Shown here one piece after another: positions 5,450 through 33,630 of a stretch of DNA of 54,255 nucleotides. A program made the translations under genes and the position numbers. How positions within the stretch are numbered: the first letter of the stretch is position 1; each line of letters opens with the position of its first letter. A model generated the notes under the pieces. The model saw nothing but the letters and a program-made list of their open reading frames with translations. It searched no databases and had not been told where the DNA came from. The stretch covers positions 1 through 54,255 of the forward strand of contig JBDRNU010000011.1 of the NCBI GenBank assembly GCA_043810775.1. Direction: 5' to 3'. This DNA is from an archaeon. GTDB taxonomy: Archaea > Nanobdellota > Nanobdellia > Pacearchaeales > GW2011-AR1.

Positions 5450-6571
5450 ATGTTTAAAAATTTAAAAGATAAATTGAAAGGATGGTTTTCCTCAGCAGGA
5501 AAAAAAGCTGCCGAGCCAGTTGAAGAGCCTTTAGTTGAGACTATACAAAAAAAACCAGTTGAGCAAGCTAAAAAAGTCAAGGAAAAGAAGATACAAATTA
5601 AAGAAGAACCAGAAATTAAAGAGGAAAAACAAGAACCAGAAGTAGAAGTTCAAGAACTAATTGAAGAGGTGGCTGAAAAGCCAGTTGAAAAGCCAAGAGA
5701 AAAAAAAGGTATATTTAAGGGCTTATTTAAAAAAACCTATACAATTCATCAAGAATATATAGAAGAAATCTTTCCACCACTAGAAGAGCTTCTCCTAGAA
5801 AATAATGTAGCTCTTCAAGTAGTTGATAAAATAAAGCGGGAAATGGAAAAAGATTTAGTTGACCTTACAGTTGACAAAAAGAATCTTGAGCAGGAAGTGA
5901 AAAAAGTTTTTAAGAAAATAGTTTCAGATCTGTTATTAGAACCTTTTGACCTAATTGAGAAAATTAAAGAAAAAGAAGGCACATTTATAATGCTTTTTTT
6001 TGGAATAAATGGCTCAGGAAAAACAACCACCATAGCCAAGCTCGCCTCTCTATTGAAAAAAAACAATATATCCTCAGTATTTGCAGCTTCAGATACATTC
6101 AGGGCTGCTTCAATTGAACAGCTGCAAAAACATGGTGAAGTTTTAAAAATTAAAGTTATTAAACAGCACTATGAAGCTGACCCAACAGCAGTAGCTTACG
6201 ATGCAATAGAACATGCCCGTGCTCATAAAATCAAAGTAGTGCTAATTGACACAGCAGGAAGAATGCATACTAAGGACAATCTAATGAAGGAAATGCAAAA
6301 AATTTCCCGAGTAACTAAACCAGACTTGAAAATTTTCATCGGAGAGTCTATTACTGGAAATGATGCCACTAACCAAGCCAAAATGTTCAGTGATACAATA
6401 GGCATAGATGGTATAATTTTAAGTAAAGCTGACGTTGATGAAAAATCAGGAACAGTGCTATCTGTAAGCGAAGTCACTGGAAAGCCAATTCTATATCTCG
6501 GCACAGGTCAAGAGTACTCCAATTTGGAATTATTCAATAAAGAAAAAGTTCTGAAAAGCCTAGATTTATGA
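5450..6571 (+). CDS. ftsY: Signal recognition particle receptor FtsY
   Basis: Acidic N-terminal region, GINGSGKTTT, DTFRAAS, DTAGR, GTGQEY. Confidence 0.96.
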   Translation: MFKNLKDKLKGWFSSAGKKAAEPVEEPLVETIQKKPVEQAKKVKEKKIQIKEEPEIKEEKQEPEVEVQELIEEVAEKPVEKPREKKGIFKGLFKKTYTIHQEYIEEIFPPLEELLLENNVALQVVDKIKREMEKDLVDLTVDKKNLEQEVKKVFKKIVSDLLLEPFDLIEKIKEKEGTFIMLFFGINGSGKTTTIAKLASLLKKNNISSVFAASDTFRAASIEQLQKHGEVLKIKVIKQHYEADPTAVAYDAIEHARAHKIKVVLIDTAGRMHTKDNLMKEMQKISRVTKPDLKIFIGESITGNDATNQAKMFSDTIGIDGIILSKADVDEKSGTVLSVSEVTGKPILYLGTGQEYSNLELFNKEKVLKSLDL

Positions 6572-7235: not shown

Positions 7236-8162
7236 TTATGGGAGTTTTTCTATTTCTTTTATCTCACCACTATAAGGATTTATCTCAATTTTTCTACGAG
7301 AAGCAGGAACTATAATATCTTTATATTCTGGCTCTACCCAGACATCCTTGTAATATCCCTCTTTAACTTTTACTTTAGTCTTCTTTGTAAAAGTATCTTT
7401 AGTATCATCCCAGTGTTCTTTATTAGTAAATGGTAAAAATAAAGTTCCCATTATAGTTCTAGGAATCCCATACATTATTCCATTTTCAATATCAGCTACC
7501 TCTCTTTCTTCATACTCTGGCTCTACCCATTGCTTATCATAATGCCCTTCACTAATTAATCTTCTTTCAACTCTCTTAGAAACATTCTCAACCGCAGTAT
7601 AATTAAAAGATTTTATATCTTTAAGCAATTTTTCCTCGCCAGGAAAATCATCTTTTTTAATATCAGAATATAATCTTCTTATATTTGATTGAATTTCACC
7701 AGGAGGAAATCTGGCTGGACTTTTTTTAATTTGATCAAATCTTTCCATATATTCAGATTTTTTGTTTAGTTTTGCAATTTCTGGGTCTATAGTCTCATCA
7801 TCATATCTAGTAACTAACTCACCAAGTGAACCAAACCTGCCAGACCATTCTTTAGCTAATTTTTTCTGAAGTTCTTCGCTAATTCTATCAGCTTCCTGAA
7901 TATTTCCAGCTGAAACACTCTGTTCAACCTGTTTAAATTCACCGTGATACTCTAAATATCTTTTCTGCCTCCTATCCTGAGTGTCCTTTACACCAGCAAA
8001 AGCTATTAATGAAGCTAATCCAATATAAAATAATAAATGTAAAGTTGGTGCAAAATCAAATTTACGTTTAGCTTTAATTGGGCTAACTTCCGTTTTAGGC
8101 TGTTCAGATTGTTCAATTTTTCCAAAATTTACTAACTCTTCCTCTAGATTATCCATCTTCAA
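7236..8162 (-). CDS. NLEEEL-leader, single-TM protein of the PY(S/T)GE family
   Basis: MDNLEEELVNF (likely ATG at 8156); TM LHLLFYIGLASLIAFAGV; internal repeat EG(H/Y)YxxxWVEPEY; ends INPYSGEIKEI. Confidence 0.8.
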   Translation of the reverse strand: MKMDNLEEELVNFGKIEQSEQPKTEVSPIKAKRKFDFAPTLHLLFYIGLASLIAFAGVKDTQDRRQKRYLEYHGEFKQVEQSVSAGNIQEADRISEELQKKLAKEWSGRFGSLGELVTRYDDETIDPEIAKLNKKSEYMERFDQIKKSPARFPPGEIQSNIRRLYSDIKKDDFPGEEKLLKDIKSFNYTAVENVSKRVERRLISEGHYDKQWVEPEYEEREVADIENGIMYGIPRTIMGTLFLPFTNKEHWDDTKDTFTKKTKVKVKEGYYKDVWVEPEYKDIIVPASRRKIEINPYSGEIKEIEKLP

Positions 8163-8997
8163 TCAATCCATACTTTTTCCACATAGGAACTTTTCTTGCA
8201 ATTCTCTCTGCCTCTTCCCTACTCATTTTCCCATTATTTACATCATCTTGCATAATCCCCATAATACTTTCAAAATCTTCATCGCCCCTATGCACTTTTC
8301 TCATGCTTTTTTCAGCTTTACGGGAGAAAAAACCAGGAGTATAACTTGAAGAAGTAGTTGGAAAACCACTACTCTCTGTCTGCCTCATTAAATCAAAAGC
8401 TTTAGGAAGATTTCTGGAAATTTCATCTATTTTCCTCCAATCTAAATCCTCACCTTGATCTGCTCTATCTGATAAACCTTTAATTACATGAGGTAATAAA
8501 CCAGGATCTACCACTTTTCCTAAATTTTCCTGAATTTGAGATAATAAAGGGTTCGAAGTTCTTGGAGGAATATAAGGTTCTGCAGGTTTACCATATAGCA
8601 CTTCATCTGCAAGTTTTTGATACTCAGGAGAAATGCCAGGAATTCGTGATTTTAGCTCAGGATTTATAAGTTCAATCTTCTCTCCAGAAGGTGTATGGAA
8701 CATATCTATAGGTCTAAGTTCTGGTTCAGGAAAAATATCTCTAACTTCATCTGAATCAGGAAAGCCATATCTTTTCCTGTAATCTCTAACAGCTTCGATT
8801 GCTTTTCTTAGAGCAGTATCTTTATCTGGTTTTCCAGTAACTCCATCATAATCTCTCTTTGCTTTTTTAAATTCCTCAGGAGTAGGACTTTCAGCTTCTT
8901 TGCTCAATTCAACTAGCTCTTGTTCTAGATTTTCAGGCTGTTCAGATTGTTCAATTCTTCCAAAATTTACTAATTCTTCCTCTAAATTTTCGCTCAT
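8149..8997 (-). CDS. Soluble hypothetical protein with two tandem NLE(E/Q)EL leaders
   Basis: MSENLEEELVNFGRIEQSEQP-ENLEQELVELSKEAE; no TM. Confidence 0.8.
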   Translation of the reverse strand: MSENLEEELVNFGRIEQSEQPENLEQELVELSKEAESPTPEEFKKAKRDYDGVTGKPDKDTALRKAIEAVRDYRKRYGFPDSDEVRDIFPEPELRPIDMFHTPSGEKIELINPELKSRIPGISPEYQKLADEVLYGKPAEPYIPPRTSNPLLSQIQENLGKVVDPGLLPHVIKGLSDRADQGEDLDWRKIDEISRNLPKAFDLMRQTESSGFPTTSSSYTPGFFSRKAEKSMRKVHRGDEDFESIMGIMQDDVNNGKMSREEAERIARKVPMWKKYGLIEDG

Positions 8998-9027
8998 TTT
9001 CTTATAAATCTAATTTTATATTTAATT

Positions 9028-9972
9028 TTATCTTTTTGCAAAAAAATCCTGCACGTTTTTATTACCATATAATTTAAAATCAGTAATGTTTATTCCAATT
9101 TTATCCCCATATCTATCAGAAACATCTTCAGACTCTCCTTTAAAAGGATTACATTTATGTATCCTTTTTATTCTTTTATTGAAACAATAAGTTCCAGCCC
9201 AACTTAAAGTAGCTAAAGGGGCAAAATTTAATTCAACTTCAGGACTAATATAAGTGAATCCTTTTATCTCGTCTAATAATTCTTGATAAGCTCTTTGATC
9301 AGATTCTTTATAAATACTTTTTACAAGTCCTCTAATTTCATCATAGATCTTTGCATCATCAATTAAAACAGAGTTTCGCCCCACTGAAGACATATAAAGC
9401 TGACAATTAAGCGGTTTCTTAATCTCCTCAAACCTTCTCTGATACCAAGTATTTACCTTAGTATGCTCTGGTTTTTTTTGGTCAACTTCAAATTCAAGTC
9501 TAGACTTCTCCATAAGCTCAGCTTTTCTTGCTTCATCTCTTGCCAGTACTTGATCATACCAACTGGGAGTTTCTTCTTTTGTTTCCCGAGTAATAGGATT
9601 TAAAGTTTCATACTCCTTTTTTTCAGCTGGCTTAGGTTTTTCAAACTTTTCAGGTTCAGGAGGTTTAATTTTCTCTTCTAGTTTGCTCTCTTTAACAGGC
9701 TCTAATCTTGCTATTTCAGTATCTTTAGGTTCATACTGCTCCACAATAGGGGAGCTTTCATGAAACATCCTCTTTTTTATCGCATAATCCATACCACAAA
9801 CAAAGGCAAACCCAAAAAGAGCCACCAATCCAGCAGGAATTAAAGTCTTCCAATTAGGACCTTTTTTATATTTTTTAATTTCTATTGGTTCAGATAAAGA
9901 TGTTGAAGGTTCTAAATTTTTAGCTTCCCTTGCCAGTTCAGCTAGCTCTTGCTCTAGATTATCTTTTTCCAC
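9028..9972 (-). CDS. NLEQEL-leader, single-TM protein (paralog of 21244-22191)
   Basis: GTG start; KKGPNWKTLIPAGLVALFGFAFVCGMDYA; FAPLA...NKRI...NPFKGE. Confidence 0.8.
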   Translation of the reverse strand: MEKDNLEQELAELAREAKNLEPSTSLSEPIEIKKYKKGPNWKTLIPAGLVALFGFAFVCGMDYAIKKRMFHESSPIVEQYEPKDTEIARLEPVKESKLEEKIKPPEPEKFEKPKPAEKKEYETLNPITRETKEETPSWYDQVLARDEARKAELMEKSRLEFEVDQKKPEHTKVNTWYQRRFEEIKKPLNCQLYMSSVGRNSVLIDDAKIYDEIRGLVKSIYKESDQRAYQELLDEIKGFTYISPEVELNFAPLATLSWAGTYCFNKRIKRIHKCNPFKGESEDVSDRYGDKIGINITDFKLYGNKNVQDFFAKR

Positions 9973-10630
9973 TTTCTCTAATGTTCCTCCCTATAATTTC
10001 CTCAGAAGAATAAAAAGGTCTGACTCTGATTTCATCATAATAAGTAAATCCTACATTATCTTTTGGAAAAGATAAAGGTCTATAGCTAGAGGGATTAAGA
10101 ATTATATTAGGTGAAAAAGCAACAATACTTGCAATATCATGAACTAGATTTCCTGGATTAAGATGATTCTGAGTTACTTCTTCATAACCTTGGAAGAAAT
10201 TTCTCTTAATATATTCAAAGCCTTTCAATCTCTCTAAATATTCTTTTGAATAAATATTAGAATCTCTTCTAAGCTTAGAAGTTAATTCTCTAAAAAGAAT
10301 ATTCACATTATCGGGCTTATTCTGCTTGATATAGTATATTATTTTATCATCATAACTTCCATATCTTTTCTTAAATTCTGAATAAGCCATAAGATTATCA
10401 GAAGACTCAACCAAATCCTCCACCCCCTTATTCTGAAAACCTTCAATTCCAATATCTTCCACAATTGGAAATCTAGTCCATTTAACTATTCTAGAATAGA
10501 CAAAATCTCTGGTATCATGGGTTTCATAACTTGAATAAGAATTAGTCGTGATAGTTCTAGTAGCACTTGCGCATGAATTGCTTCCTATCAATATAGTTGC
10601 AAGTAGGAAATTTAGTAATTTATTTTTCAT
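9959..10630 (-). CDS. Putative lipoprotein, PY(T/S)GE family
   Basis: MKNKLLNFLLATILIGSNSC lipobox-like signal; YYDEIRVRPF C-terminus. Confidence 0.8.
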   Translation of the reverse strand: MKNKLLNFLLATILIGSNSCASATRTITTNSYSSYETHDTRDFVYSRIVKWTRFPIVEDIGIEGFQNKGVEDLVESSDNLMAYSEFKKRYGSYDDKIIYYIKQNKPDNVNILFRELTSKLRRDSNIYSKEYLERLKGFEYIKRNFFQGYEEVTQNHLNPGNLVHDIASIVAFSPNIILNPSSYRPLSFPKDNVGFTYYDEIRVRPFYSSEEIIGRNIRESGKR

Positions 10631-11268
10631 TCTACCTTAACCTCTTTATTTATTATTATCTCAGTTCCATAATAAGGGTGAACTCTAAAATCATCGTAAA
10701 ATTTTTCCCTAGTAGGTTTTTTCCTAATGCCTGATGAAGCTGATTTATCCTCTTTTAAATAAAAATATAATTGATAAGGCAACATAACAACATCCAAAGC
10801 CATTTTCTCCAATGAATAATCATACTCTTTTTTCCAAACTGCTCCAACTTCAGCATCATAATAAACTCTTTTTACATATTCAAAATTTTTTACCCTTCCC
10901 AAATAATTTTGAGCATGCTTATTAGGATCTTTCTTCAATTCATCAACCAAAGCCATAAAAGTTTTATTCCCTCTATCTAATCTCTCATTTGAATAATGAT
11001 CTATAATCTCTTCAACACCAGCAGAATATTTTTTTCTAAACTCAATATACTCTAAATAATCATCAGTAGTTTCAATTAATATCTCCACATTACTTGAACT
11101 TAAAGAAGAGGCATTAGTAATGCTAATGTCAGTAACAGAAACTATATCAAATCCCAAGACATCGCTTTTTTCAACTTTCTTATCTCTTGGACCAGAGTAG
11201 GTAGTAGTACACGAAGTGCTCACAGCTAAAGTGAGTGCAAGTAGAAAATTTAGTAATTTACTTTTCAT
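10627..11268 (-). CDS. Putative lipoprotein, PY(T/S)GE family
   Basis: MKSKLLNFLLALTLAVSTSC; LIETTDDYL; FYDDFRVHPYYG; ends VKVE. Confidence 0.8.
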   Translation of the reverse strand: MKSKLLNFLLALTLAVSTSCTTTYSGPRDKKVEKSDVLGFDIVSVTDISITNASSLSSSNVEILIETTDDYLEYIEFRKKYSAGVEEIIDHYSNERLDRGNKTFMALVDELKKDPNKHAQNYLGRVKNFEYVKRVYYDAEVGAVWKKEYDYSLEKMALDVVMLPYQLYFYLKEDKSASSGIRKKPTREKFYDDFRVHPYYGTEIIINKEVKVE

Positions 11269-11906
11269 TCTACCTTAACCCTCTCCCTTACAACTTCCTC
11301 TTCCCCAGTATAAGGTCTGACTCTGATTTCATCATAATATTTCTCTTTAAGAACATTTTTTGAATACGAACCAGAACTAGTTTCCTTAAAAAATAAAAGA
11401 TAAAATGGTTGCCAAGGTATACCTGCAATATCCATAATAATTTCATCCCAAGTATAATTTTTATCCTGCTCCCAACCTTCTCCAATTTCAGCAGAATAAA
11501 ACACCCTTTTAGTATATTCAAATTCTTTTATTTTCTCCAGATACTGCTGAGCATATTGATTATTATCCTTTCCAAGTTTTTTAGATAATATCATGACTAA
11601 CTTATTAGCTTCGTCAAACTTATTTTTTTTGAGAAACTCTAATATATCCACAGCATCGTCAGAATACTCCTGCCTAAATTCAATATATCCTAAATAGCTA
11701 TCAGTAGTCTCAATCAAGCCTTCAACTCCTTTTTTCTTAGGAGGTTCTAAGCTTATTGAAATATCTTCTGCCGAAATAAAGTCATAAGTTAAAATATTTG
11801 TGCTTTGAACTTCCTTATTTCTAGGAGCATCATATATAGTGGTAGCGCATGAAGTAGTTCCAACCAATATAGTTGCAAGTAGGAAATTTAGTAATTTATT
11901 TTTCAT
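11265..11906 (-). CDS. Putative lipoprotein, PY(T/S)GE family
   Basis: MKNKLLNFLLATILVGTTSC; GVEGLIETTD; YYDEIRVRPYTGEEE; ends ERVKVE. Confidence 0.8.
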   Translation of the reverse strand: MKNKLLNFLLATILVGTTSCATTIYDAPRNKEVQSTNILTYDFISAEDISISLEPPKKKGVEGLIETTDSYLGYIEFRQEYSDDAVDILEFLKKNKFDEANKLVMILSKKLGKDNNQYAQQYLEKIKEFEYTKRVFYSAEIGEGWEQDKNYTWDEIIMDIAGIPWQPFYLLFFKETSSGSYSKNVLKEKYYDEIRVRPYTGEEEVVRERVKVE

Positions 11907-11909
11907 TCT
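11838..11909. repeat. 72-bp exact direct repeat (second copy 13203-13274) encoding the lipoprotein signal MKNKLLNFLLATILVGTTSCATT
   Basis: Base-by-base comparison of the two copies; degenerate copies lie at the starts of the 9959, 10627, 11903 and 15590 ORFs. Confidence 0.9.
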
Positions 11910-12559
11910 ACTTTTACTCTCTCCCTAATAATTGTTTTTTTTCCACTATAAGGATTGATTTGTACTTCATCATAATACTTATGTATAATCTCTTTTTCTT
12001 CAAGATAAGGAATGTCATTTATATCCCACTCACCAAATAGAATACCCCAAGCAAAAGCATAAGTCATTAATAAATGTGAAGGAGTATCTAACAAACTAAA
12101 ATCATCAGTAAATCCAGTCTTCCTTCCAATTTTCATATCATAATAAACTTTCTTCTTATATTCAAAATTCTTTATCCTTTCTAAGTAATCATGTGCATAA
12201 ATATTATCATCACACTCAAGTTTATCAGCCAATCCTCTAACTAAAATATGTGCTTCAATAAAATCATTATTTTCTAAACTCTCCTGAATTCTAATAGGAT
12301 ATCCATAATACTCTTGTCTAAATTCAAGATAATCTAAATAATCCTCTGTAGTCTCAATCAAACCCTCAACTCCTTCCTGATTAGGAGACATCAAACTTAT
12401 AGAGATATCTTCTGAAGAAGTAAAATTATGATCAGTCATTTGAAGATCAAAAGTTCCCTCACGTTTAGGAATCTGATAAATAGTAGCACACGAAGTAGTT
12501 CCTACTAACAAGCATGCAAGTAAAAATGTGAATAATTTAGTTTTCATTTTATTTTTCAA
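11903..12559 (-). CDS. Putative lipoprotein, PY(T/S)GE family
   Basis: LFTFLLACLLVGTTSC; GVEGLIETTEDYL; YYDEVQINPYSG; ends ERVKVE. Confidence 0.8.
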   Translation of the reverse strand: MKNKMKTKLFTFLLACLLVGTTSCATIYQIPKREGTFDLQMTDHNFTSSEDISISLMSPNQEGVEGLIETTEDYLDYLEFRQEYYGYPIRIQESLENNDFIEAHILVRGLADKLECDDNIYAHDYLERIKNFEYKKKVYYDMKIGRKTGFTDDFSLLDTPSHLLMTYAFAWGILFGEWDINDIPYLEEKEIIHKYYDEVQINPYSGKKTIIRERVKVE

Positions 12560-13271
12560 ATCTCTCTTGCTCCCTTAAAAAAGATTGTAAATCATAATCA
12601 TCAAATTTAAAACCATCACGAGGAATCTTATTTTCAAAAACATCAAGACTCATACCAATAAATTGAGGATATGACTCTGAAATATCAGTTGTCTCTCCAG
12701 TATAAGGATTGTACCTGTAAAATCCTACAACTGTAGAATTATCCGGATATGCTTCTGAATCAAGCAAGCTTTTAACCATCTTCCCCCCAAAAGTATATCC
12801 AAGATTTAATCTGACATTATAATACTCAAATTCCCTTATTTCATTAATTAAAGGAAGAAAGCACTCCAAACACTTTTCCTCAGAGATGGTTGCTAACAAA
12901 GAATAAACATATCTAGTAATTTGGTTATCGTCAATGTAAGTTATTTGCTTTTCCTCAATATCATTATAATCATAATCGTCATTTAATCTATTCTGAATCC
13001 TATTAAACTCTCCCCTAAAAACCCTCATCCTTCCAGAACTCTCAAAAATCTCATCTAATTTCTCAATACTATGATCAAGCTCACTTATTAATTCATCTAC
13101 TCTCTCTTTTTTTGGAGGCCTTACTCTTGTCTTTTTTTGTGCAGGTTCTTCAAGTGGAAGTGAACTTATTTTTGAGACTTCCTCATTTCCATTAGTAGGA
13201 TAAGTGGTAGCGCATGAAGTAGTTCCAACCAATATAGTTGCAAGTAGGAAATTTAGTAATTTATTTTTCAT
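12549..13271 (-). CDS. Putative lipoprotein with body related to 9028/21244 paralogs
   Basis: Signal identical to that of 11265; IREFEYY...YNPYTGETTDISESY aligns with IKGFTYI...CNPFKGESEDVSDRY of 9028. Confidence 0.8.
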   Translation of the reverse strand: MKNKLLNFLLATILVGTTSCATTYPTNGNEEVSKISSLPLEEPAQKKTRVRPPKKERVDELISELDHSIEKLDEIFESSGRMRVFRGEFNRIQNRLNDDYDYNDIEEKQITYIDDNQITRYVYSLLATISEEKCLECFLPLINEIREFEYYNVRLNLGYTFGGKMVKSLLDSEAYPDNSTVVGFYRYNPYTGETTDISESYPQFIGMSLDVFENKIPRDGFKFDDYDLQSFLREQERFEK

Positions 13272-14071
13272 TCTTCTTCCCTCAAAACTTTTTCAATTCG
13301 AGATATCCCATCAGCATCTTGTTTTTTCCTTATTTCTTCCATTTTTTCATCTTCCTTAATCACTCCACCTGATTTCTTAAACTGGTATCTCTTTATAGCA
13401 GATGAGTAAATTCCATAATCCCAAGAGTTAATACGTGGAGATTTTAATTTCCTTGATAATTTGACTGCTTTTTCACAATGCTCAATTGCATCATCAAAAT
13501 TCCCCCTAAGAGCATCAATCTTTGAAAGTGTAAAATAAAGGGCAGGACAATCATCATTATAACATACAGCTCTTTCAGGGTTCTTACCTTTGCTTGCATA
13601 CGACTCAATAGCTTTACAATTTCCAGTAGATTCACATTCATCATGAAATTCTAAAGATTTTCTAATCATTTTCTCAGCTCTATCTAAATACCTATAATCG
13701 TAAAAAAGTTCAGCTAAATTACTATAAACAGGTAAGCAGTCTGGGTCTAGTTCTAAAGCTTTCTTATATTCTCTTAAAGCCTCATCTGGCCTTTTGCTTA
13801 CCAAACTAAATCCTTTATTATTATGTTGAATTGCTTCATCAACTATTTTATGTTTTCTTCTTTCCTCTTTAATCCTTCCTTCAATTCTATTAATGTACTC
13901 ATCTATTTCTCTTATTAGTCTGTCTATATCTTGATTTGATTGTACCAAGTAAATTCTGGTTTGATCCTGCTCTAAATTCCTTTCCAAGACCCTCTCTAAC
14001 TCTCCCGCCTCCACCCTCCCACCAGCTAATAAAACTCCTGCAAATACTAAGGGAATTAATTTATTTTTCAT
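13268..14071 (-). CDS. Secreted TPR protein
   Basis: Signal MKNKLIPLVFAGVLLAGGRVEA; TPR motifs EALREYKKALELDPDCLPVYSNLA and DDAIEHCEKAVKL. Confidence 0.8.
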   Translation of the reverse strand: MKNKLIPLVFAGVLLAGGRVEAGELERVLERNLEQDQTRIYLVQSNQDIDRLIREIDEYINRIEGRIKEERRKHKIVDEAIQHNNKGFSLVSKRPDEALREYKKALELDPDCLPVYSNLAELFYDYRYLDRAEKMIRKSLEFHDECESTGNCKAIESYASKGKNPERAVCYNDDCPALYFTLSKIDALRGNFDDAIEHCEKAVKLSRKLKSPRINSWDYGIYSSAIKRYQFKKSGGVIKEDEKMEEIRKKQDADGISRIEKVLREEE

Positions 14072-14077
14072 TCTACT
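14024..14077. repeat. 54-bp exact direct repeat (second copy 15546-15599) encoding VE-stop/MKNKLIPLVFAGVLLA
   Basis: agctaataaaactcctgcaaatactaagggaattaatttatttttcattctact at both positions; spans a gene junction. Confidence 0.9.
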
Positions 14078-14745
14078 TTTACTCTCTCCTTTAATATTTC
14101 TTCTTCTCCCGTATAAGGTCTGACTCTGATTTCATCATAATAATAAACAACAATAGGTGACATTTCAAAACCTTTCTTTCTGAGTTTTTCTATCATAGGT
14201 TCAATAAATTCTTCGTTACCAGAATAATAATTAAAAGTAGATTTCTCATAATAAGAAGACTCAGAAGTTACTCTACTCTTCTCCCATATTTCACCTACAT
14301 CAGCAGAATAATAATCTCTCCTCACATATTCAAAATTCTTAATTGTCTCAAAATATTGTTGAGCATAAGGATTTTCATCTTTTTGAAGTATCCTCCCCAA
14401 ATCTCTCACTTGCCTATCTAGTGTAGATAAGTTATTTCGTCTTTCAGAGCAATTTTTAATAATATTAGTAATCCTCACAGCATCATCAGAATACTTCTTT
14501 CTAAATTCAATATATTCTAAGTAATTATCAGTAGTCTCAATTAATCCTTCAACTCCTGTTTGTTTTGGAGGTTCTAAGCTTATAGAAATATCTCCAGCTG
14601 ATACAATTTCACTATGCTGAATTATAACCTCTGCCTTTAACTGAATATTTCTTGGAGTAGGGGTAACTCTCTCACAGGAAGCACTCCCAGTCAAAACAGC
14701 TGCAAATAACAAAGCTGTTAGACTTTTTCCCATTGTAAACTTCAT
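14068..14745 (-). CDS. Putative lipoprotein, PY(T/S)GE family, with a different signal peptide
   Basis: LLFAAVLTGSASC; body close to 15590; YYDEIRVRPYTGEEEILKERVKVE. Confidence 0.8.
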   Translation of the reverse strand: MKFTMGKSLTALLFAAVLTGSASCERVTPTPRNIQLKAEVIIQHSEIVSAGDISISLEPPKQTGVEGLIETTDNYLEYIEFRKKYSDDAVRITNIIKNCSERRNNLSTLDRQVRDLGRILQKDENPYAQQYFETIKNFEYVRRDYYSADVGEIWEKSRVTSESSYYEKSTFNYYSGNEEFIEPMIEKLRKKGFEMSPIVVYYYDEIRVRPYTGEEEILKERVKVE

Positions 14746-15593
14746 CTCAAACCCCTCCCTAAATATCTATCACTAAATAAAGTATCTTTATACCCTACAC
14801 ACAAATCTCTATATCCTCTCAGCTCCTTTTGCAAATCTTCTAAATCCCTGACACTCTGATTAGGATATCTTAATTCCTCCCCAATAACAGCTATCCTATC
14901 ATTATATTGCTGATATCTACTTTCAGCTAGTTGTTTTAATTTAGAATAAACTTCTTCCCTGGTATCAATCACAGATGAGCATAAAGCCTTGTTATAAGAA
15001 TAAGGCTCCTGAGTAATTAACACAGACATCTTCTGCAATAACTGATCATAACTTATCAATCTATCAATATTTTCTTCCTTAATATCTTTCTCATATGATA
15101 CTGCTATTTTCTTAAAATCATCTACTAACTCCTGAATCTTCTTTAACTCTGGAACTATTACTTGAGATTTATAGCTTGAAACAGAATCTCTTAAATTACT
15201 AATTCCCTGATACCCTTGAACTCTACTAACAACTTGCGAATCATAATCAGGGCTAAAGCTATTTAATCTTGAGCTTAATTCTTCATGCAAGCGGCTAGAT
15301 TCATAATAATCTTTTTTTTCTACAGCTCTCTTTACCATAAAAAACTGCTGACTTAACTCTCGAACAGTGCTCTCTTCTTTCTTTATACCCTCCTCTTCAA
15401 CTTTAACTATTTTTTTTGATAACTCGCCAATGTATTCATCAACTGTTATTATTAAAGTATTAATTTCCGAACTAGCTTCTATCTGATTATTACTAAGGGG
15501 AATGCCTTGAAGCGCTTTTTCCAACTCCCCTGCCTCCACCCTGCTAGCTAATAAAACTCCTGCAAATACTAAGGGAATTAATTTATTTTTCAT
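14742..15593 (-). CDS. Secreted helical/coiled-coil protein (related to C-terminal part of 16318)
   Basis: Signal MKNKLIPLVFAGVLLASRVEA; ends LFSDRYLGRGLR, versus LFSERYL in 16318. Confidence 0.78.
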   Translation of the reverse strand: MKNKLIPLVFAGVLLASRVEAGELEKALQGIPLSNNQIEASSEINTLIITVDEYIGELSKKIVKVEEEGIKKEESTVRELSQQFFMVKRAVEKKDYYESSRLHEELSSRLNSFSPDYDSQVVSRVQGYQGISNLRDSVSSYKSQVIVPELKKIQELVDDFKKIAVSYEKDIKEENIDRLISYDQLLQKMSVLITQEPYSYNKALCSSVIDTREEVYSKLKQLAESRYQQYNDRIAVIGEELRYPNQSVRDLEDLQKELRGYRDLCVGYKDTLFSDRYLGRGLR

Positions 15594-16321
15594 TCTACTC
15601 TAACTCTCTCCTTTAGAACTTCTTCATCTCCAGTAAAAGGTCTGACTCTGAATTCATTATAATACTTTTTTTGAACAGTGCTTCTAGTAGTTGGACGAGG
15701 GTCATAATTTTCACTAGATCCACCTTTCTTTACATGATCCCATTGTTCAGAGAACGCTTTTCTTTCCTCAGGTAAGATCAAAAGAGGAATCTCTACAGCA
15801 GTGTAAATTCCCATAAAAGTAGCAGCATGAACAAAAGCCAGAGGATTAAACCTTTTATTAAGATTACCCCTCTCTCCAATTTCAGCAGAATAATAATCTC
15901 TCCTAATATATTCAAAATCTTTAATCTTTTCAAAATACTGCTGTGCATATTGGTTTTCATCATTCTCAAGTCTTTTTCCTAAATCTCTTACTAATTTATC
16001 AACTGAAACTAAGGAATCTAATCCTTTAGAGCAATTTTCAATAACAGTCATTATATCCTTTGCATCTTTGGAATACTCTTTCCTAAATTCAATATATTCT
16101 AGATAATTGTCAGTAGTTTCAATTAAGCCTTCTACTCCTTGATTTTTTGGAGCTTCTAAACTGATAGAAATATCTTCAGCAGATATAACTTCACTATGTT
16201 GAAAAATATTTTCATCATACTGCCTGACATTTCTAGGGCTAGAATAAGTAGTAGCGCAGGAAGTGGCTCCAACTAGAGTAAGTGCAAGCAGGAAATTTAG
16301 TAGTTTATTTTGATTCATCAT
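15590..16321 (-). CDS. Putative lipoprotein, PY(T/S)GE family
   Basis: NKLLNFLLALTLVGATSC; long hydrophobic insert; YYNEFRVRPFTGDEE. Confidence 0.8.
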   Translation of the reverse strand: MMNQNKLLNFLLALTLVGATSCATTYSSPRNVRQYDENIFQHSEVISAEDISISLEAPKNQGVEGLIETTDNYLEYIEFRKEYSKDAKDIMTVIENCSKGLDSLVSVDKLVRDLGKRLENDENQYAQQYFEKIKDFEYIRRDYYSAEIGERGNLNKRFNPLAFVHAATFMGIYTAVEIPLLILPEERKAFSEQWDHVKKGGSSENYDPRPTTRSTVQKKYYNEFRVRPFTGDEEVLKERVRVE

Positions 16322-17481
16322 AAATACCTCTCACTGAATAGGGGAACAGGATTCCTAGTATATTTTTCCATTTCAGATTTCACACTTGCTAATTCATTTC
16401 TTAATGATTTTAATTCATCTGCACTTAAATCATTCCTGCTGATTCTCTTTCCTAAATCACTAATTTTTGTTTCATACTCTCTCTGCTTAACTCTAGCGAA
16501 TGTTCTTAAAACCAATACTACAGCTACATACTGCTTTTGAAATTTAGGTTTTAGTTCAGGATAATCACTAACTAAAGAACTTTGAAGCACAGAAGACAGT
16601 TCATTATCAACTCTGATTAAATTTGCAATATCTCTTCCAATAATATACTTATCATAATTTTGAGAAGCTTGCTGCAACTCAGCACTAATTTCAGATATTC
16701 TTGCTGTATGAGTTCCTAACTGGGTTTTTCTATATTCCTGAATTACATCACTAAAAGAATTTAAGCTACTAATTCCATTTTCTCTTAATTTCCTATTAAG
16801 CTCCGAATTCTCAGTTAAAAATGCTTTATTATCATAAACCAAAGAATTACTAGTTAATTGAGATAATAAAGATTCAATTGCAGCATCTGCTTCAGCATAA
16901 TACTTCCTATTAGCTGACTGTTTAGCTGAATCAAATTTATCCAAAAGTTTTGCAACTAGATCTTGCTCAGCTTTAATGCCTTTGAGATGGGCTTGTTCAA
17001 TCTCCCTAACCCTAGATTCCTTATCTCCAAACTGGACTCTTTCGCAAAAAGCCATTAATTCATCTAAATTATTTTTCCTCTCCTTATAATCTTTTTTTAA
17101 AGATATCTTGGACAATTCTGTAGAAACTTTTGAGCTTATAGTAGTATCAATTTTTTCATCTAGCTTGCCATAATCAGGAAGCAGCCCTAATTCAATTGCT
17201 TTTTTATCTTCACTTGCATCATCAATTAATCTTTCAATCTCTTCATCAGCTAAGTCTAGTTTACCTTCTTCTAAAAGGAATGAGGCAGTGTCATATCGAG
17301 TTTTATAATCTCTAATTTTCCTTTCATCTAAAGAGCTTCTAACTTGCGGAAGAGATAGTATTCCTACGCTTAATATTCCTACAGCAGCTAAACCTGTAAT
17401 TAGCTTAGCTAAAGGAAATTTTGGCTTTTTCTCTTCAATGCCCATCAATTCAACCAAATCTTTTTCTAAACTATCTTTCAT
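16318..17481 (-). CDS. Leader (DSLEKDLVEL), single-TM coiled-coil protein
   Basis: Leader variant, TM LITGLAAVGILSVGILSL, helical body. Confidence 0.8.
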   Translation of the reverse strand: MKDSLEKDLVELMGIEEKKPKFPLAKLITGLAAVGILSVGILSLPQVRSSLDERKIRDYKTRYDTASFLLEEGKLDLADEEIERLIDDASEDKKAIELGLLPDYGKLDEKIDTTISSKVSTELSKISLKKDYKERKNNLDELMAFCERVQFGDKESRVREIEQAHLKGIKAEQDLVAKLLDKFDSAKQSANRKYYAEADAAIESLLSQLTSNSLVYDNKAFLTENSELNRKLRENGISSLNSFSDVIQEYRKTQLGTHTARISEISAELQQASQNYDKYIIGRDIANLIRVDNELSSVLQSSLVSDYPELKPKFQKQYVAVVLVLRTFARVKQREYETKISDLGKRISRNDLSADELKSLRNELASVKSEMEKYTRNPVPLFSERYL

Positions 17482-17950
17482 TTTGCCCCCTTATTTTATT
17501 ATAAAATTTAACTGTGGCTTGAGCATTATAAACTACATTCGCACTATAACAAGAAAAACTAAAATTAGAAAATTGAGCTTGAAAATCAACAGAATCACTA
17601 ATCTTTAAAGCTGAATGATTTCTCTCTCTCGCTTCTTCTAAAGCCTTCTTCTCAAGTTTTTCTTTTAATTTTGCTAAGTGTTCTGCTTCAGCTTTAATAT
17701 AAAACTTTTGAGTCCCAAATGCTCTATCTATAATGTTTCCATGTATATAGTGAAACATTTGACCAGCTGGAGGGGTTCGAGCAGGTACTAAATCAACTTT
17801 ATTACGAATTGAAGTGACACTAATTCCTTTAGTAAGAACATTCTCATAGTCTTCTGGAACTTGATCTCTCCCAAAAAACATAATCGGTTGACTCACTTCA
17901 TCCTCTACTTCTCCAAGTTTCGTTAACTCTTCTTCAAGATTTTCTCCCAT
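17471..17950 (-). CDS. NLEEEL-leader small alpha/beta protein (family with 19034, 20005)
   Basis: PIMFF...KALEEARERNHSAL...YNAQATVKFY shared with paralogs; SD-like GGAG upstream. Confidence 0.78.
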   Translation of the reverse strand: MGENLEEELTKLGEVEDEVSQPIMFFGRDQVPEDYENVLTKGISVTSIRNKVDLVPARTPPAGQMFHYIHGNIIDRAFGTQKFYIKAEAEHLAKLKEKLEKKALEEARERNHSALKISDSVDFQAQFSNFSFSCYSANVVYNAQATVKFYNKIRGQNER

Positions 17951-18023
17951 TTGAATCTCCTATCACCTCTTTCGCCTCTCTCTCCAATTGACTCAATTCT
18001 TTTTCTAAGTTTTTATTTTCCAT
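17934..18023 (-). CDS. 29-aa leader-only mini-ORF MENKNLEKELSQLEREAKEVIGDSNGRKS
   Basis: Manually translated; fills the gap between 18013 and 17950, overlaps both neighbours and carries the family leader. Confidence 0.65.
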   Translation of the reverse strand: MENKNLEKELSQLEREAKEVIGDSNGRKS

Positions 18024-19050
18024 TATCCACCCCCACCTGACCAGAAGACTCAAAATTCAGGGGCCTGCGCATTAAAGAATCTGAATCTCCCATATTTCTC
18101 GCACCCTGCCTCAAGCTTAAGTCAGTAGTCATTCTCCAATCCATTAAATCTCTAACAGGTGCATAATTTGCATCTAGCTCTAAAATTTTCTCAACTTGAG
18201 TAGTAGCATTATAGCGATCCCCTTTATCAAGCAAAACTCTTGCAAGGTTAAAATGATACTCAACATTATCTCTATCCAATCCTAGCGCAGTTTTATAAGC
18301 CTTAATAGAAGCTTCAAGATCACCTTTCTCCCTATAAACATGCCCTAAATTACTATAAGAAGGAGCATGATCAGGAGCAAATTCCACACATTTTCCATAA
18401 GCTGTAATTGCTTCATCAAACTTACCTTTTTCAAAAAAAGCATTTCCTAAATTATTATAAACAGGTGCATAATTTGCATCTAGCTCTAATGCTTTTTCAT
18501 ATTCTTTTACTGCTTCATCAAACCTCCCTCTTTGATACAAAACAATTCCTAAATTATTATGGGGAGGTGCTAGATCTGGTCTAAGTTCAATTGTTTTTCT
18601 AAGTATACTTTCAGCTTCACTAAGTTGACCATTGTTTTGTAAAGCATTTCCTAAATTATTGCAAATCACAAAATTATGGGGGTCATATTCTAAAGCTTTT
18701 TTATAATCTTTGATTGCCTTATCTAATTTACCCTCTTTAACAAGATCTTCAGCTATATGGAAATAATGATCTCTTCTTGCAACATCTATTTTATGCTCAT
18801 TATTTACTTCTTCTGTTTGCTCAAGAATCGCTCCCCCCCTATTAGGATTATCATTTCTAGCTTTATTCCAGGCAGGTACAGTAACAGCTGCTATCATTCC
18901 ACAAACTCCCAATACTGCTGCTAACTCAACAGCTCTAAATCCCTGATGTTTTTTATGTTTCTTTTTAGGCTTCCTTTTAATATACTTTTTAAAGCCTCCT
19001 ACTTCACCCAGTTCAGCCAGCTCTTGTTCTAAATTATCTGTCATTTTCAC
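18013..19050 (-). CDS. NLEQEL-leader TPR protein with prepilin-like hydrophobic segment
   Basis: Likely ATG at 19044; QGFRAVELAAVLGVCGMIAAVTVPAWNKAR; about 6 TPRs; 30-bp internal repeat at 18154-18183 and 18460-18489. Confidence 0.85.
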   Translation of the reverse strand: MKMTDNLEQELAELGEVGGFKKYIKRKPKKKHKKHQGFRAVELAAVLGVCGMIAAVTVPAWNKARNDNPNRGGAILEQTEEVNNEHKIDVARRDHYFHIAEDLVKEGKLDKAIKDYKKALEYDPHNFVICNNLGNALQNNGQLSEAESILRKTIELRPDLAPPHNNLGIVLYQRGRFDEAVKEYEKALELDANYAPVYNNLGNAFFEKGKFDEAITAYGKCVEFAPDHAPSYSNLGHVYREKGDLEASIKAYKTALGLDRDNVEYHFNLARVLLDKGDRYNATTQVEKILELDANYAPVRDLMDWRMTTDLSLRQGARNMGDSDSLMRRPLNFESSGQVGVDNGK

Positions 19051-19603
19051 TATCCTTTAAATCATAAAAATAAGCAGTAACTGAAGCATTATATTTAATA
19101 TCTGCTCTAAAAGGCCCTGCAAGAGGTTCTTTAAAATTAAAAATTGAACCAGAAATCCTGATTTTTTCTTCTTCTATTAATACTGCATCATGTTCCCTAT
19201 CTATAGCTTCCTGTTCAGCTTTTTCCCTTAATAAACTTATTAAATCCATTATATGCTTATTTTCTTCAGGATCATATTGGGGATAAACCTCCCCCATAAA
19301 CACACGATTATAAGAAAAATTATAATCTCCAGAAGGAATTTCAGTAAGACCTGCTTTTTGATATTCGGCAGAAACTGAAATTCCTGCAGTCCCAACCATC
19401 CTATAAATTTCAGTAGGAATACCATCCTCACTTAAAAATACAGTTGGCTGAGAAGGTTTTTTCAATTTTCTTTTTTTTAAATCATCTACCTGAGCTCGAA
19501 TAGCTTCAATTCTATTTATTAATTCTTGTCTGGCTTCTTTATCTGAATTTTCAGCTTCTCTTGCAAGTTCAGCCAGTTGTTCTTCTAAATTATCCATCTT
19601 CAT
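19034..19603 (-). CDS. NLEEQL-leader small alpha/beta protein
   Basis: PTVFL...EKAEQEAIDREHDAVL...YNASVTAYFYD. Confidence 0.78.
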   Translation of the reverse strand: MKMDNLEEQLAELAREAENSDKEARQELINRIEAIRAQVDDLKKRKLKKPSQPTVFLSEDGIPTEIYRMVGTAGISVSAEYQKAGLTEIPSGDYNFSYNRVFMGEVYPQYDPEENKHIMDLISLLREKAEQEAIDREHDAVLIEEEKIRISGSIFNFKEPLAGPFRADIKYNASVTAYFYDLKDSENDR

Positions 19604-20018
19604 TTTTTTCTTTCAATTTTTTTATACGTTGATCTGGAGATATATTTAACCTTTTATCCTCAGGATTTGTCCAATAAATATCTCCATGAGTATCTGAATA
19701 TTCTTGATAAAAAGGGCATGATCCATAAGGGAAAAATCTCCTTTTCTTAAAAAGACCTTTCGAATCCTGCTTAAGAGCACATCCTTTATGATAAATAATA
19801 AGACCTACATCTTTAGAATAATCTTCTCTTCTTGTATCTGTTTTTTCAACAAAAAATTTGCAATTAACCTCTCTCTCAAAAATCTCAATTCTTCCATTTC
19901 CTGTTTTTCCCTCAAGAACAGAACAGTGCATTTCTATGGGATAACTTCTAGTTTCTTCAGGCTGTTCAACTTCCCTGCTTAATTCAGCCAGCTCTTGTTC
20001 TAAATTATCCATCTTCAC
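19590..20018 (-). CDS. NLEQEL-leader small Cys-containing protein
   Basis: MDNLEQELAEL; four Cys (HC, NCKF, GCAL, CPFY), possibly metal-binding. Confidence 0.75.
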   Translation of the reverse strand: MKMDNLEQELAELSREVEQPEETRSYPIEMHCSVLEGKTGNGRIEIFEREVNCKFFVEKTDTRREDYSKDVGLIIYHKGCALKQDSKGLFKKRRFFPYGSCPFYQEYSDTHGDIYWTNPEDKRLNISPDQRIKKLKEKNEDG

Positions 20019-20580
20019 TACCTACCTGATCATAAAAATAAATAGGAATTTTGCAAGAATATTTAAGAGTTCCTCTTGGATGCCCAAGATCCAGAGTACC
20101 TCTGCTAAAATCAGAAATTGAAATTCTTGTATTAGAAAAAATTTCAGTTTCATTATAAAACACAGCGTCATGTCCTCTATTCCTAGCTTCATCTCTCGCC
20201 ACCCTATAAACTTCTTCTTCTAAATCAATAAAATGTTTTTCCTGAAAATCATCATAATAAAAAGGCTTATTATGAATTTCATTACTCTGTGTTAATAAAA
20301 TCGAATTTTCATTTAATTTAGAAACTTCATCACTATTATAAGTTAAAGAAATATTAATATTTACACATTCTATACTAGCTCTTAATTCATACTTTCCTGC
20401 TTTTTCATAGTTATCTAAAACTTCTTCTTCATTTCTAAATACTAAAGGCTCTCTTGGCTTTCTAGAAATATCACTCACTATTCCCAATACTTTCTGTATT
20501 AACTCTCTAGCTGTTGCATCTTCTAACTGTCCAGCTTCCCTGCTTAATTCAGCTAATTGTTCTTCAAGATTTTCGCTCAT
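20005..20580 (-). CDS. NLEEQL-leader small alpha/beta protein
   Basis: PLVFR...VARDEARNRGHDAVF...YSCKIPIYFYD. Confidence 0.78.
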   Translation of the reverse strand: MSENLEEQLAELSREAGQLEDATARELIQKVLGIVSDISRKPREPLVFRNEEEVLDNYEKAGKYELRASIECVNINISLTYNSDEVSKLNENSILLTQSNEIHNKPFYYDDFQEKHFIDLEEEVYRVARDEARNRGHDAVFYNETEIFSNTRISISDFSRGTLDLGHPRGTLKYSCKIPIYFYDQVGSEDG

Positions 20581-21254
20581 TTTGGTAAAAATATCCTCCC
20601 TCCCCTCTGCTTTTCAGGCCATCCAATTCCTTTTATTCCTTCCTTAAAAGCTCCAACAAAAGTTTGTTCCCTATCAGGATCCATATATTTTGGCTTGAAT
20701 CTTTTATGCTTGGGCAATACTATTTCAGGCACATCAACTCTTCTTCCAATAGGATCAAACCTTAATTTTGTTTCCTCATCCCGAAAAGGAAATCCCAATA
20801 CTAAAACTCCTTGTTCATTTGTCCTTAAAAACCGAAAACCTACTCCCCACTCATTAAGTGTAAATAGATTTGACGCAGATCTATTATCTCTATAAGTCGT
20901 CACTAAAACCTGCCATTCAGAACCAGCGTCATGAGAATTTGCTTTTATTAACAAATCTTGATAATCCTTATTATCTTCATAACTTTTCCAGATTTCGAAA
21001 GCATCAGAAAACATTTTTTCTGCCTGTCCCCTATTCCCTTGATTAGAGTTTATTACACCTAGATTATAATGGGCTTCTGCAAATTCAGGTTCAAGTTGAA
21101 TTGCTTTTTCATATTCTAAACTAGCCATATTAAGAGCTGCTGATCTCTGATATTCATAAGCCTGTCTAAAATGCTCTAACGCTTGGGGATTTCCACTAGT
21201 AATATTTTCTATTCTTGCCAACTTTGCAAGCTCAGCTTCTAAATTATTCTTCAT
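20577..21254 (-). CDS. NLEAEL-leader TPR protein
   Basis: YEKAIQLEPEFAEAHYNLGVI TPR followed by an unknown C-terminal domain. Confidence 0.8.
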   Translation of the reverse strand: MKNNLEAELAKLARIENITSGNPQALEHFRQAYEYQRSAALNMASLEYEKAIQLEPEFAEAHYNLGVINSNQGNRGQAEKMFSDAFEIWKSYEDNKDYQDLLIKANSHDAGSEWQVLVTTYRDNRSASNLFTLNEWGVGFRFLRTNEQGVLVLGFPFRDEETKLRFDPIGRRVDVPEIVLPKHKRFKPKYMDPDREQTFVGAFKEGIKGIGWPEKQRGGRIFLPK

Positions 21255-27259: not shown

Positions 27260-27333
27260 ATTGCTTTATTTTTTTTAATTTAAGATAGTATACACTATCT
27301 TACCTCTACAGCTCTGAAGAGATAAAAGGTCTT

Positions 27334-27353
27334 GTTGTAGCTTGCAAGACTAC
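27334..27353. promoter_or_regulatory. Putative operator GTTGTAGCTTGCAAGACTAC in the divergent promoter region, next to TATA-like TTATATA
   Basis: 14/20 identity to the site at 34944 and 37915; imperfect palindrome. Confidence 0.55.
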
Positions 27354-27421
27354 AAAATTATATATAAGATTACCCCCAGTCTTCATATAGTTACTTTAGT
27401 ATAGTAACATTTATATAACTT

Positions 27422-33595: not shown

Positions 33596-33630
33596 GTGAT
33601 TTTTTTATTTTAAAAAAAAAGAAAAAAAAT

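Follow-up and report, generated by a model that had tools for sequence, protein, structure and literature searches.

Re-entrant hydrophobic hairpins anchor several groups of monotopic proteins, among them caveolin, the reticulon-homology domains and the stomatin/SPFH proteins; in these, a hydrophobic stretch with a central Pro/Gly kink is too short for two bilayer crossings and keeps both of its ends on one side. Tandem variable surface lipoproteins are known from wall-less or host-associated bacteria, as with the Vlp/Vsa proteins of Mycoplasma and the lipoprotein paralogs of Borrelia. DPANN archaea, which account for much of the diversity of archaea and rely on contact with other cells, have very few envelope proteins with an assigned role. 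Archaeal lipoproteins, including those exported by Sec or Tat in Haloferax volcanii and those of the AliA/AliB pathway, carry a signal peptide ending in a small-residue/Cys lipobox; one study gives the pattern as L/V/I at position -3, A/S/T/V/I at -2, G/A/S at -1 and C at +1, and reports predicted lipoproteins and the lipidation enzyme AliA (arCOG02177) in DPANN archaea, with some gaps (PMC12462473). Here we describe six tandem genes for predicted lipoproteins, which we call type A, on the minus strand of a 54,255-nucleotide (nt) contig from an archaeon of the Pacearchaeales lineage GW2011-AR1 (JBDRNU010000011.1; the whole contig is referred to as the window).

The type A family is undescribed and its fold is without clear counterpart. 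Our preferred reading, which we hold tentatively and rate somewhat short of an even chance, is that each protein is a rod-shaped extracytoplasmic lipoprotein attached to the membrane twice at the same pole, by an N-terminal lipid and by a re-entrant hydrophobic helix-turn-helix, while its conserved distal pole faces partners encoded in the same gene cluster. If this dual anchor is real, the family would be a simple and testable case of an archaeal lipoprotein held rigidly oriented on a membrane. The six genes, with coordinates taken from a list of open reading frames (ORFs), are as follows; lengths are in amino acids (aa), and each line ends with the segment between the conserved FEY and YYDE motifs.

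9959-10630, minus strand: type A paralog of 223 aa, the most diverged copy; segment 10043-10210
10627-11268, minus strand: type A paralog of 213 aa; segment 10702-10875
11265-11906, minus strand: type A paralog of 213 aa (P0001, modelled); segment 11340-11513
11903-12547, minus strand: type A paralog of 214 aa from a probable ATG at 12547 (TTG at 12559 in the ORF list); segment 11978-12157
14068-14733, minus strand: type A paralog of 221 aa with a polar insert (P0003), from a probable ATG at 14733 (ORF to 14745); segment 14143-14325
15590-16318, minus strand (ORF to 16321): type A paralog of 242 aa with the longest and most hydrophobic insert (P0002; hydropathy 1.87, scored as below); segment 15665-15907

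These proteins (213-243 aa, 27-49% pairwise identity by BLASTP) have in common a signal peptide, an invariant Cys, conserved FEY and YYDEIRVRPYTG blocks, and between the blocks a divergent insert of 33-55 aa. An earlier reading of the sequence alone (hereafter the sequence-only reading) had noticed the six paralogs and their flanking motifs, and these hold as a consensus, ...IKNFEYxKRVYYSAEIGE... before the insert and ...KYYDEIRVRPYTGxEEIIxERVKVE after it, from which copies 9959, 10627 and 11903 deviate. Across the genome, which is about 1 Mb and 80% complete, there are seven matches, namely the six full-length copies and the N-terminus of a neighboring gene at 12549-13271; no additional full-length copy was found. 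A 39-sequence alignment that includes relatives from other genomes has three invariant residues, the lipobox Cys (C20), Y81 and P198, and three near-invariant ones, L107, F129 and Y131.

The sequence-only reading called the insert unalignable and hypervariable. Its pairwise amino acid identity does drop to 0.05-0.27 among the six paralogs, against 0.45-0.73 in the flanks, and length varies in the insert only, but a Pro inside or beside the most hydrophobic stretch is kept in 6/6 copies and in 34/37 relatives whose insert could be delimited, and the paralogs are nearly as divergent elsewhere, at alignment columns 31-40 and 111-135. When inserts are scored by their best 15-residue Kyte-Doolittle mean, 30/37 relatives reach at least 1.5 and 11/37 at least 2.0, and in 33/37 no other part of the mature protein is as hydrophobic as the insert. 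Because 30/37 relatives have a Pro-containing, near-transmembrane hydrophobic segment, the hydrophobic Pro-containing insert is an ancestral feature of the family, and what was called hypervariable is better read as weakly constrained, hydrophobicity and a Pro kink being all that must be kept. Some relatives (P0033, P0027) have 40-50 hydrophobic residues in the insert, which is enough for a full helical hairpin. The division of the six window inserts into five hydrophobic and one polar is rather a gradient, from 1.87 through 1.37, 1.34, 1.17 and 1.03 to 0.33 in copy 14068. The window inserts are rich in Trp, Phe and Tyr, and on the Wimley-White interfacial scale the best insert 19-mers of the five nonpolar copies come to -1.2 to -5.8 kcal/mol, compared with +0.8 to +4.8 for the rest of the mature proteins. 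A membrane-inserting tip, as the sequence-only reading proposed, is therefore plausible, since the insert is so consistently the most hydrophobic mature segment.

The predicted fold places this insert at the end of a stalk. We modelled two paralogs, 11265 and the polar copy 14068, with AlphaFold2 and a 39-row alignment, and obtained a mean predicted local distance difference test score (pLDDT) of 84.0 and a predicted template modelling score of 0.68 for the former, and 84.4 and 0.71 for the latter, which has the same scaffold. In the 11265 model a signal helix (residues 3-14) and Cys20 precede strand beta1 (29-41), three helices (61-93, 97-113 and 117-128), beta2 (131-147), two insert helices (153-161 and 163-172), beta3 (181-197), a PYTG turn and beta4 (202-211); beta2 begins at the FEY motif and beta3 is the YYDEIRVRP segment. 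The helical part is a 33-residue helix with two helices running back along it, and the four strands are predicted to form a sequential antiparallel meander, beta1-beta2-beta3-beta4, packed on this helical hairpin. In both models the flanks pair as a long beta-hairpin whose strands have pLDDT 86-97, with the insert at its tip, so the beta-hairpin stalk suggested earlier is recovered at high confidence for a hydrophobic and a polar copy alike. The 11265 insert is modelled as two short helices split at a Pro (pLDDT 58-77), and that of 14068 as a low-confidence loop (153-173) followed by an amphipathic helix (174-186).

Structural comparison was used for strand order only. The best VIA-align match (Z 7.0) covers the helical part alone; over model residues 28-213 the matches are WD40 blades (Z 6.6, root-mean-square deviation (rmsd) 2.0, 50 residues) and cystatins (3ima_D and 4lzi_A; Z 6.0, rmsd 2.1-2.2, 55-56 residues), whose Z values lie within the range that the tool flags as common. 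As modelled, type A shares with the cystatin/monellin-like alpha+beta roll and with single WD40 blades the strand-helix-strand-strand-strand order and an antiparallel meander on a helix. The cystatin fold proper has a five-stranded antiparallel sheet around one helix. Type A differs in its 33-residue helix with a return helix pair, its strands of 13-17 residues and the hydrophobic insertion of 33-55 aa in the beta-hairpin, and there is no sequence similarity. Cystatins have their N-terminal trunk at the end of the fold where the first hairpin loop is also found. A search of the ESM Atlas gave no usable match by features, and by structure only rows at TM-score 0.30-0.39, from a poor Atlas model. 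The sequence-only reading had also raised the possibility of a known enzyme; no Pfam-A family scored over its cut-off for the six paralogs, no NCBIfam family was found for three window paralogs and two relatives, and a 39-sequence profile found no PDB sequence at E up to 1.

The hairpin bears directly on whether the hydrophobic part might instead be a single membrane-spanning helix that leaves the conserved YYDEIRVRPYTGEEE tail in the cytoplasm, for example as a substrate of the neighboring Ser/Thr kinase. A kinase and a PP2C phosphatase do lie in the same gene string, the tail holds conserved Tyr and Thr residues, and Lys/Arg follow the hydrophobic stretch in several copies. Such a topology would separate two flanks that are paired as one hairpin in the models of both paralogs; moreover, 14068, the related type B proteins (below) and some relatives keep both flanks without a hydrophobic segment, and few window inserts have both the length and the hydrophobicity needed to cross a membrane. 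We regard a single spanning helix as very unlikely.

Strand order suggests where the tip lies relative to the N-terminus. Beta1 is antiparallel to beta2 and beta2 runs to the insert, therefore beta1 would start at the insert pole; Cys20 precedes beta1 by nine residues, therefore the N-terminal tether and the insert would sit at one pole. This same-pole geometry should be valid for a lipid tether or an uncleaved signal peptide alike. On the same model the family-wide conserved F129, Y131 and P198 would lie at the pole opposite the insert, as would loop 42-60, which is strongly conserved among the six copies. The sequence-only reading presented the tip outward; the meander topology speaks against this by putting the tethered N-terminus at the insert pole, and a re-entrant anchor, which that reading had listed as an outcome contrary to its own proposal, is what we now favor.

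Under the favored dual-anchor reading, a Sec-type signal and lipobox Cys would be followed by a mature protein in the form of an elongated rod, a four-stranded antiparallel meander on a long helical hairpin. The tip of its beta2-beta3 hairpin would be broken by a Pro-kinked hydrophobic helix-turn-helix, which would enter the cytoplasmic membrane of the cell itself and act there as a second, re-entrant anchor; where relatives have 40-50 hydrophobic residues, the insert could be a full helical hairpin. Two anchors would hold the rod upright with its conserved opposite pole (the FxY junction, the PYxG turn and the conserved 42-60 loop) facing outward, where it may bind cluster partners: the secreted TPR and unassigned proteins, type B modules and transmembrane proteins described below. 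Insert sequence and length would drift fast under the constraint of being hydrophobic and Pro-kinked only. The six copies are a tandem expansion of translationally coupled genes homogenized in patches by gene conversion. The likeness to caveolin, reticulon and stomatin is one of principle and is without homology; in type A the hydrophobic stretch would be grafted on the beta-hairpin tip of an extracytoplasmic lipoprotein and added to an N-terminal lipid anchor.

Lipidation at Cys20 is likewise a prediction. The window copies begin with a signal peptide (MKNKLLNFLLATILVG...) that has a basic n-region and a hydrophobic h-region, with the hydropathy peak over residues 1-25. The signal peptide is conserved and a Cys follows it in 39/39 aligned members, position -1 is S, G or A across the family, and relatives mostly have a canonical lipobox (LSGC, VAGC, LTGC). 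Type A resembles the archaeal lipobox lipoproteins in its signal peptide, but it has no sequence relation to any characterized lipoprotein and possesses a second hydrophobic element inside a beta-hairpin.

Several observations weigh against the dual anchor. Position -3 of the lipobox in the window copies is T/S/A and not L/V/I (TTSC, SNSC, STSC, SASC, ATSC), and the genome has few other convincing lipobox proteins, a regular expression having matched 20/1380 ORFs, 6 of them from the type A family. The same-pole geometry is derived from strand order only, and the structural matches are middling at Z 6.0-6.6. Model confidence is low within the insert (pLDDT 54-77). The five hydrophobic window inserts (1.03-1.87) fall below the transmembrane helices of neighboring proteins (2.14-2.38) and the insert of 14068 is polar, therefore membrane insertion cannot be required of every copy. 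Finally, transmembrane-anchored relatives in the window have linkers of at least 100 aa, so their insert is not forced toward the membrane.

Those same linkers are among the points that favor an outward-facing alternative, in which the hairpin stalk presents its hydrophobic tip away from the cell, into a host membrane or receptor, and six tips make up a repertoire. The transmembrane-anchored relatives bear the module on a long flexible linker, the tips differ strongly among the six copies, and the organism is of DPANN type with a genome of about 1 Mb, cultivated DPANN members being described in the literature as living attached to hosts. A Foldseek search against the PDB, which found no match at E <= 0.001, had staphylococcal beta-barrel pore-forming toxins as its top rows, at a nonsignificant E of 0.36-1.3, a probability of 0.35 or lower and a TM-score of about 0.15 over 82-93 aligned columns, and no such toxin is among the VIA-align top 50. 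The structural search against pore-forming proteins that the sequence-only reading had proposed therefore yielded nothing significant. What type A has in common with alpha-hemolysin and the leukocidins is a long beta-hairpin that could carry a membrane-active tip; it has no cap or rim domain, and its insert is helical, not an amphipathic beta stem. An outward tip is also at odds with the inferred position of the tethered N-terminus at the tip pole and with the family-wide conserved residues at the opposite one; and with an ancestral insert and only 1-2 matches in other genomes, a repertoire is not the normal state of the family. On balance, we think it unlikely that the tips face outward, although if they reach a host membrane the family would make a candidate for the machinery, sought for a long time, by which DPANN symbionts make contact or acquire lipids. 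A more elaborate version, which we consider a long shot, is that the rods are episymbiont contact devices whose Pro-kinked aromatic/hydrophobic tips wedge into the host membrane or extract lipids along the sheet-helix groove, that the expansion to six different tips, including a polar one, tunes the cell to different host envelopes, and that the kinase/PP2C and NLE(E/Q)EL proteins of the locus are the rest of an undescribed DPANN envelope apparatus.

Repeats within the genes provide evidence on how the copies evolve. The sequence-only reading had noticed a 28-bp repeat bordering the insert, which is confirmed with an extent of 28-29 bp and a further, more diverged copy at 11950-11978. The repeated and patch-wise identical segments are:

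10015-10043, minus strand: 29-nt repeat encoding YYDEIRVRP (beta3)
11312-11340, minus strand: the same repeat
14115-14143, minus strand: the same repeat; these three copies are 97-100% identical
15637-15665, minus strand: diverged copy of the repeat (90%)
11950-11978, minus strand: diverged copy of the repeat (72%)
11837-11908, minus strand: 72-nt patch over the start codon, signal peptide and lipobox, identical to 13202-13273 in the type B gene, which is otherwise about 24% identical

Copies 9959, 11265 and 14068 are identical over 28-32 nt at the repeat. It contains the rare codons ATC and GTC (8% usage each in their own codon families), and the chance that two random synonymous encodings of YYDEIRVRP coincide is P ~0.003; therefore the repeat exceeds what codon bias would produce. 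Copies 9959 and 11265 also share 47 identical nt at their 5' ends. Exact patches of 72, 47, 32 and 29 nt within genes that are otherwise 24-45% identical indicate gene conversion in conserved segments (signal peptide and beta3). Codon identity at identical residues is 0.44-0.87, and away from the conversion patches the synonymous sites seem close to saturated.

One might read the repeat as a recombination site for programmed hypervariation of the insert, through a diversity-generating retroelement or exchange with silent cassettes, and the exact patches on one side of the insert together with a second patch at the 5' end could be taken that way. However, no conserved exact repeat lies on the other side of the insert (only 62-73% identity in family D7), no insert is shared between any two paralogs, and none of the insert DNA recurs in the 80%-complete genome beyond matches of <= 39 nt, mostly imperfect. 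The same genome has no reverse transcriptase over the Pfam cut-off (RVT_1, best score 15.2 against 29.6 bits), and with neither this match nor a second insert copy we rejected the insert as the target of a diversity-generating retroelement. Public contigs show no variation in the inserts either: three groundwater DNA runs from two studies contain 11-12% of sampled window words in short low-depth contigs, and these have 0 differences from the window where inserts are covered, although such contigs cannot exclude rare variants. No RNA sequencing run with window sequence is listed. Taken together, these results give no support to the proposal that inserts are exchangeable by recombination, and programmed hypervariation is, in our estimate, highly improbable.

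The variable lipoproteins of Mycoplasma and Borrelia have in common with type A tandem lipoprotein paralogs, near-identical signal-peptide coding regions, divergent mature parts and gene conversion. In contrast to those systems, the window genes belong to an archaeon, have no phase-variation repeats or invertible promoters that we could see, and are translationally coupled in one string, therefore co-expression is probable. Neighboring genes overlap by 4 nt (ATGA) at 10627-10630, 11265-11268 and 11903-11906, and the codons of the conserved C-terminal ...RERVKVE hold a purine-rich GGGAGAG-like stretch just 5' of the next start; the genes are therefore translationally coupled. What looks like conservation of the C-terminal protein sequence may then in part reflect a constraint on the nucleotides themselves, imposed by the need to start translation of the gene that follows.

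The family extends beyond this genome but is sparse. A word-indexed search of 5.8 billion proteins matched only the window's own seven proteins, and the orphan-family reading that this invited was overturned by an exhaustive hidden Markov model scan of 1.84 billion cluster representatives, which found 61 proteins at E <= 0.001 (36 of them reaching 1e-10), 7 from the window itself and 54 outside it; one relative carries the NCBI name "Candidatus Woesearchaeota archaeon". Counting this genome, carriers number 2/301 sampled genomes of the order and 9/401 of the phylum, that is, 8/400 others. These eight are of the same class as this genome, with sizes of 1.1-1.8 Mb and 1-2 matches each. As far as searched, the type A family thus appears confined to Woesearchaeota/Pacearchaeota-type DPANN archaea. 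In a maximum likelihood tree of 42 rows, made by a quick search (a careful one did not complete), the window's six copies group as a single clade (SH-aLRT 99); because of this, and because other genomes carry 1-2 matches, the six are a lineage-specific tandem expansion. A search of genome contigs for loci similar to that of relative P0040 returned one in Polyangiaceae that proved spurious (32% identity over the signal peptide only), and a search of metagenome contigs with P0010 gave no matching locus. Titles and abstracts on DPANN archaea, lipoproteins, Woesearchaeota, Pacearchaeota and hydrophobic hairpins included no paper on the type A family.

Beyond type A, the window encodes a second, related module (type B) and versions of the modules with a different anchor, together with secreted proteins whose genes are interleaved with those for the lipoproteins:

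12549-13271, minus strand: type B lipoprotein of 240 aa with the same signal peptide/lipobox and an IREFEY...YRYNPYTGE module
7236-8162, minus strand: transmembrane-anchored type A-like relative with an NLEEEL motif, transmembrane helix and linker, then IKSFNY ... GIMYGIPRTIMGTLFLPF ... INPYSGE
9028-9972, minus strand: transmembrane-anchored type B relative with NLEQELAEL, transmembrane helix and K/E/P-rich linker, then IKGFTY...FAPLATL...CNPFKGE
21244-22191, minus strand: transmembrane-anchored type B relative, a paralog of 9028-9972 (35% identity over 316 aa)
13268-14071, minus strand: secreted tetratricopeptide-repeat (TPR) protein with a Sec signal lacking Cys, interleaved with the lipoprotein genes
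14742-15593, minus strand: secreted protein that matches no family and has a signal peptide paralogous to the one in 13268-14071

The type B protein at 12549-13271 has a short polar loop in place of the hydrophobic insert and a C-terminal extension. Type B can be matched by hhalign to the type A profile (probability 94%, E 1e-7), the alignment covering the helices and the FEY motif. In 7236-8162, 9028-9972 and 21244-22191, the module is placed behind an N-terminal transmembrane helix and a long linker, and the insert of the first is hydrophobic and contains Pro. Genome G041 holds a similar transmembrane-anchored protein. At the level of the family, then, modules come in two types (A and B) and are anchored in one of two ways, by a lipobox or by a transmembrane helix with a cytoplasmic N-terminal motif.

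Two metagenomic proteins, P0008 (401 aa) and P0009 (409 aa), fuse a type A module with a hydrophobic insert to a type B module in one lipoprotein. Their type B part has the short loop and a C-terminal ...LQxFF extension, and in the window A and B are adjacent genes. Such fusions are a Rosetta-stone sign and hint that A and B may interact. They also suit an explanation in which the hydrophobic tip is a protein-protein interface buried in a hetero-oligomeric envelope complex, of A with B, A with A, or A with transmembrane proteins of the cluster; type A, type B and transmembrane-anchored versions are co-encoded and translationally coupled, and in the window the inserts resemble amphipathic, aromatic segments more than transmembrane helices. 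Against this, the 11/37 relatives with transmembrane-like insert hydrophobicity (at least 2.0) better fit contact with lipid, and genomes with one or two matches would have no paralogous partners. A homo-oligomer prediction with four copies of mature P0001 and the 39-row alignment scored 0.00 twice without controls and is uninformative either way on oligomers. We consider a buried interface unlikely, to the same degree as an outward tip.

The two secreted proteins at 13268-14071 and 14742-15593 have near-identical Sec signals (MKNKLIPLVFAGVLLA...RVEAGELE), with an ELE..L segment after the predicted cleavage site that resembles the cytoplasmic NLE motif. In the distant genome G398, a secreted protein is also encoded upstream of the lipoprotein gene.

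All of these genes belong to a minus-strand string of about 7.2 to 37.9 kb, which includes the six lipoprotein paralogs along with TPR proteins, a Hanks-type kinase, a PP2C phosphatase, a transglutaminase-like protein and two P-loop/AAA proteins. Kinase, phosphatase and regulator genes of this region, and two further genes of the window, are:

22850-24283, minus strand: Hanks-type Ser/Thr kinase within the gene string, syntenic with the lipoprotein gene in G398
24267-25076, minus strand: PP2C phosphatase within the gene string, syntenic with the lipoprotein gene in G398
27422-28177, plus strand: TrmB regulator, inside the stretch of the minus-strand string
42990-43712: eIF2-alpha homolog, an archaeal marker
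2085-2170: tRNA-Thr (TGT), 86 nt

At 22850-34878, the window clusters the Hanks-type kinase, PP2C, a protein without family (729/772 aa), TrmB and a transglutaminase-like coiled-coil protein. The counterpart of this cluster in G398 is at L029 (G398:C3, 12598-19782), and in that genome a lipoprotein, a secreted protein, a transmembrane protein, a kinase, PP2C, the 772-aa protein, TrmB and a transglutaminase-like protein are clustered in like manner; the two P-loop/AAA proteins are additions in the window. The kinase/PP2C/TrmB cluster is thus conserved and tied to the lipoprotein family in two distant genomes. Pfam scans of the genes adjoining homologs in other genomes returned nothing useful.

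Twelve proteins of the string (7236-22853, minus strand) begin with an N-terminal helix of the form M..(D/E)NLE(E/Q)EL(A/V)EL, and two further ones are encoded on contig C7 (41840-42649 and 47150-48310). Some have a transmembrane helix next and others are soluble, and their relatives in G041 and G393 open with similar E.LE..L or KI.ELE.EI helices. This N-terminal helix looks like a tag, common to these proteins, for docking or sorting in the cytoplasm within a system that has yet to be described. The roughly 30-kb string, with its membrane and secreted proteins, has the FtsY gene (5450-6571) close to one end and the SRP54 gene (37982-39352) close to the other, which may be a coincidence. Elsewhere in the window, which is contig C11 of the assembly and varies between 28 and 41% G+C along its length, the tRNA-Thr exceeds standard tRNA size and may contain an archaeal intron, and a minus-strand ORF of 1906 aa (48062-53782) occupies the region of highest G+C (0.37-0.41).

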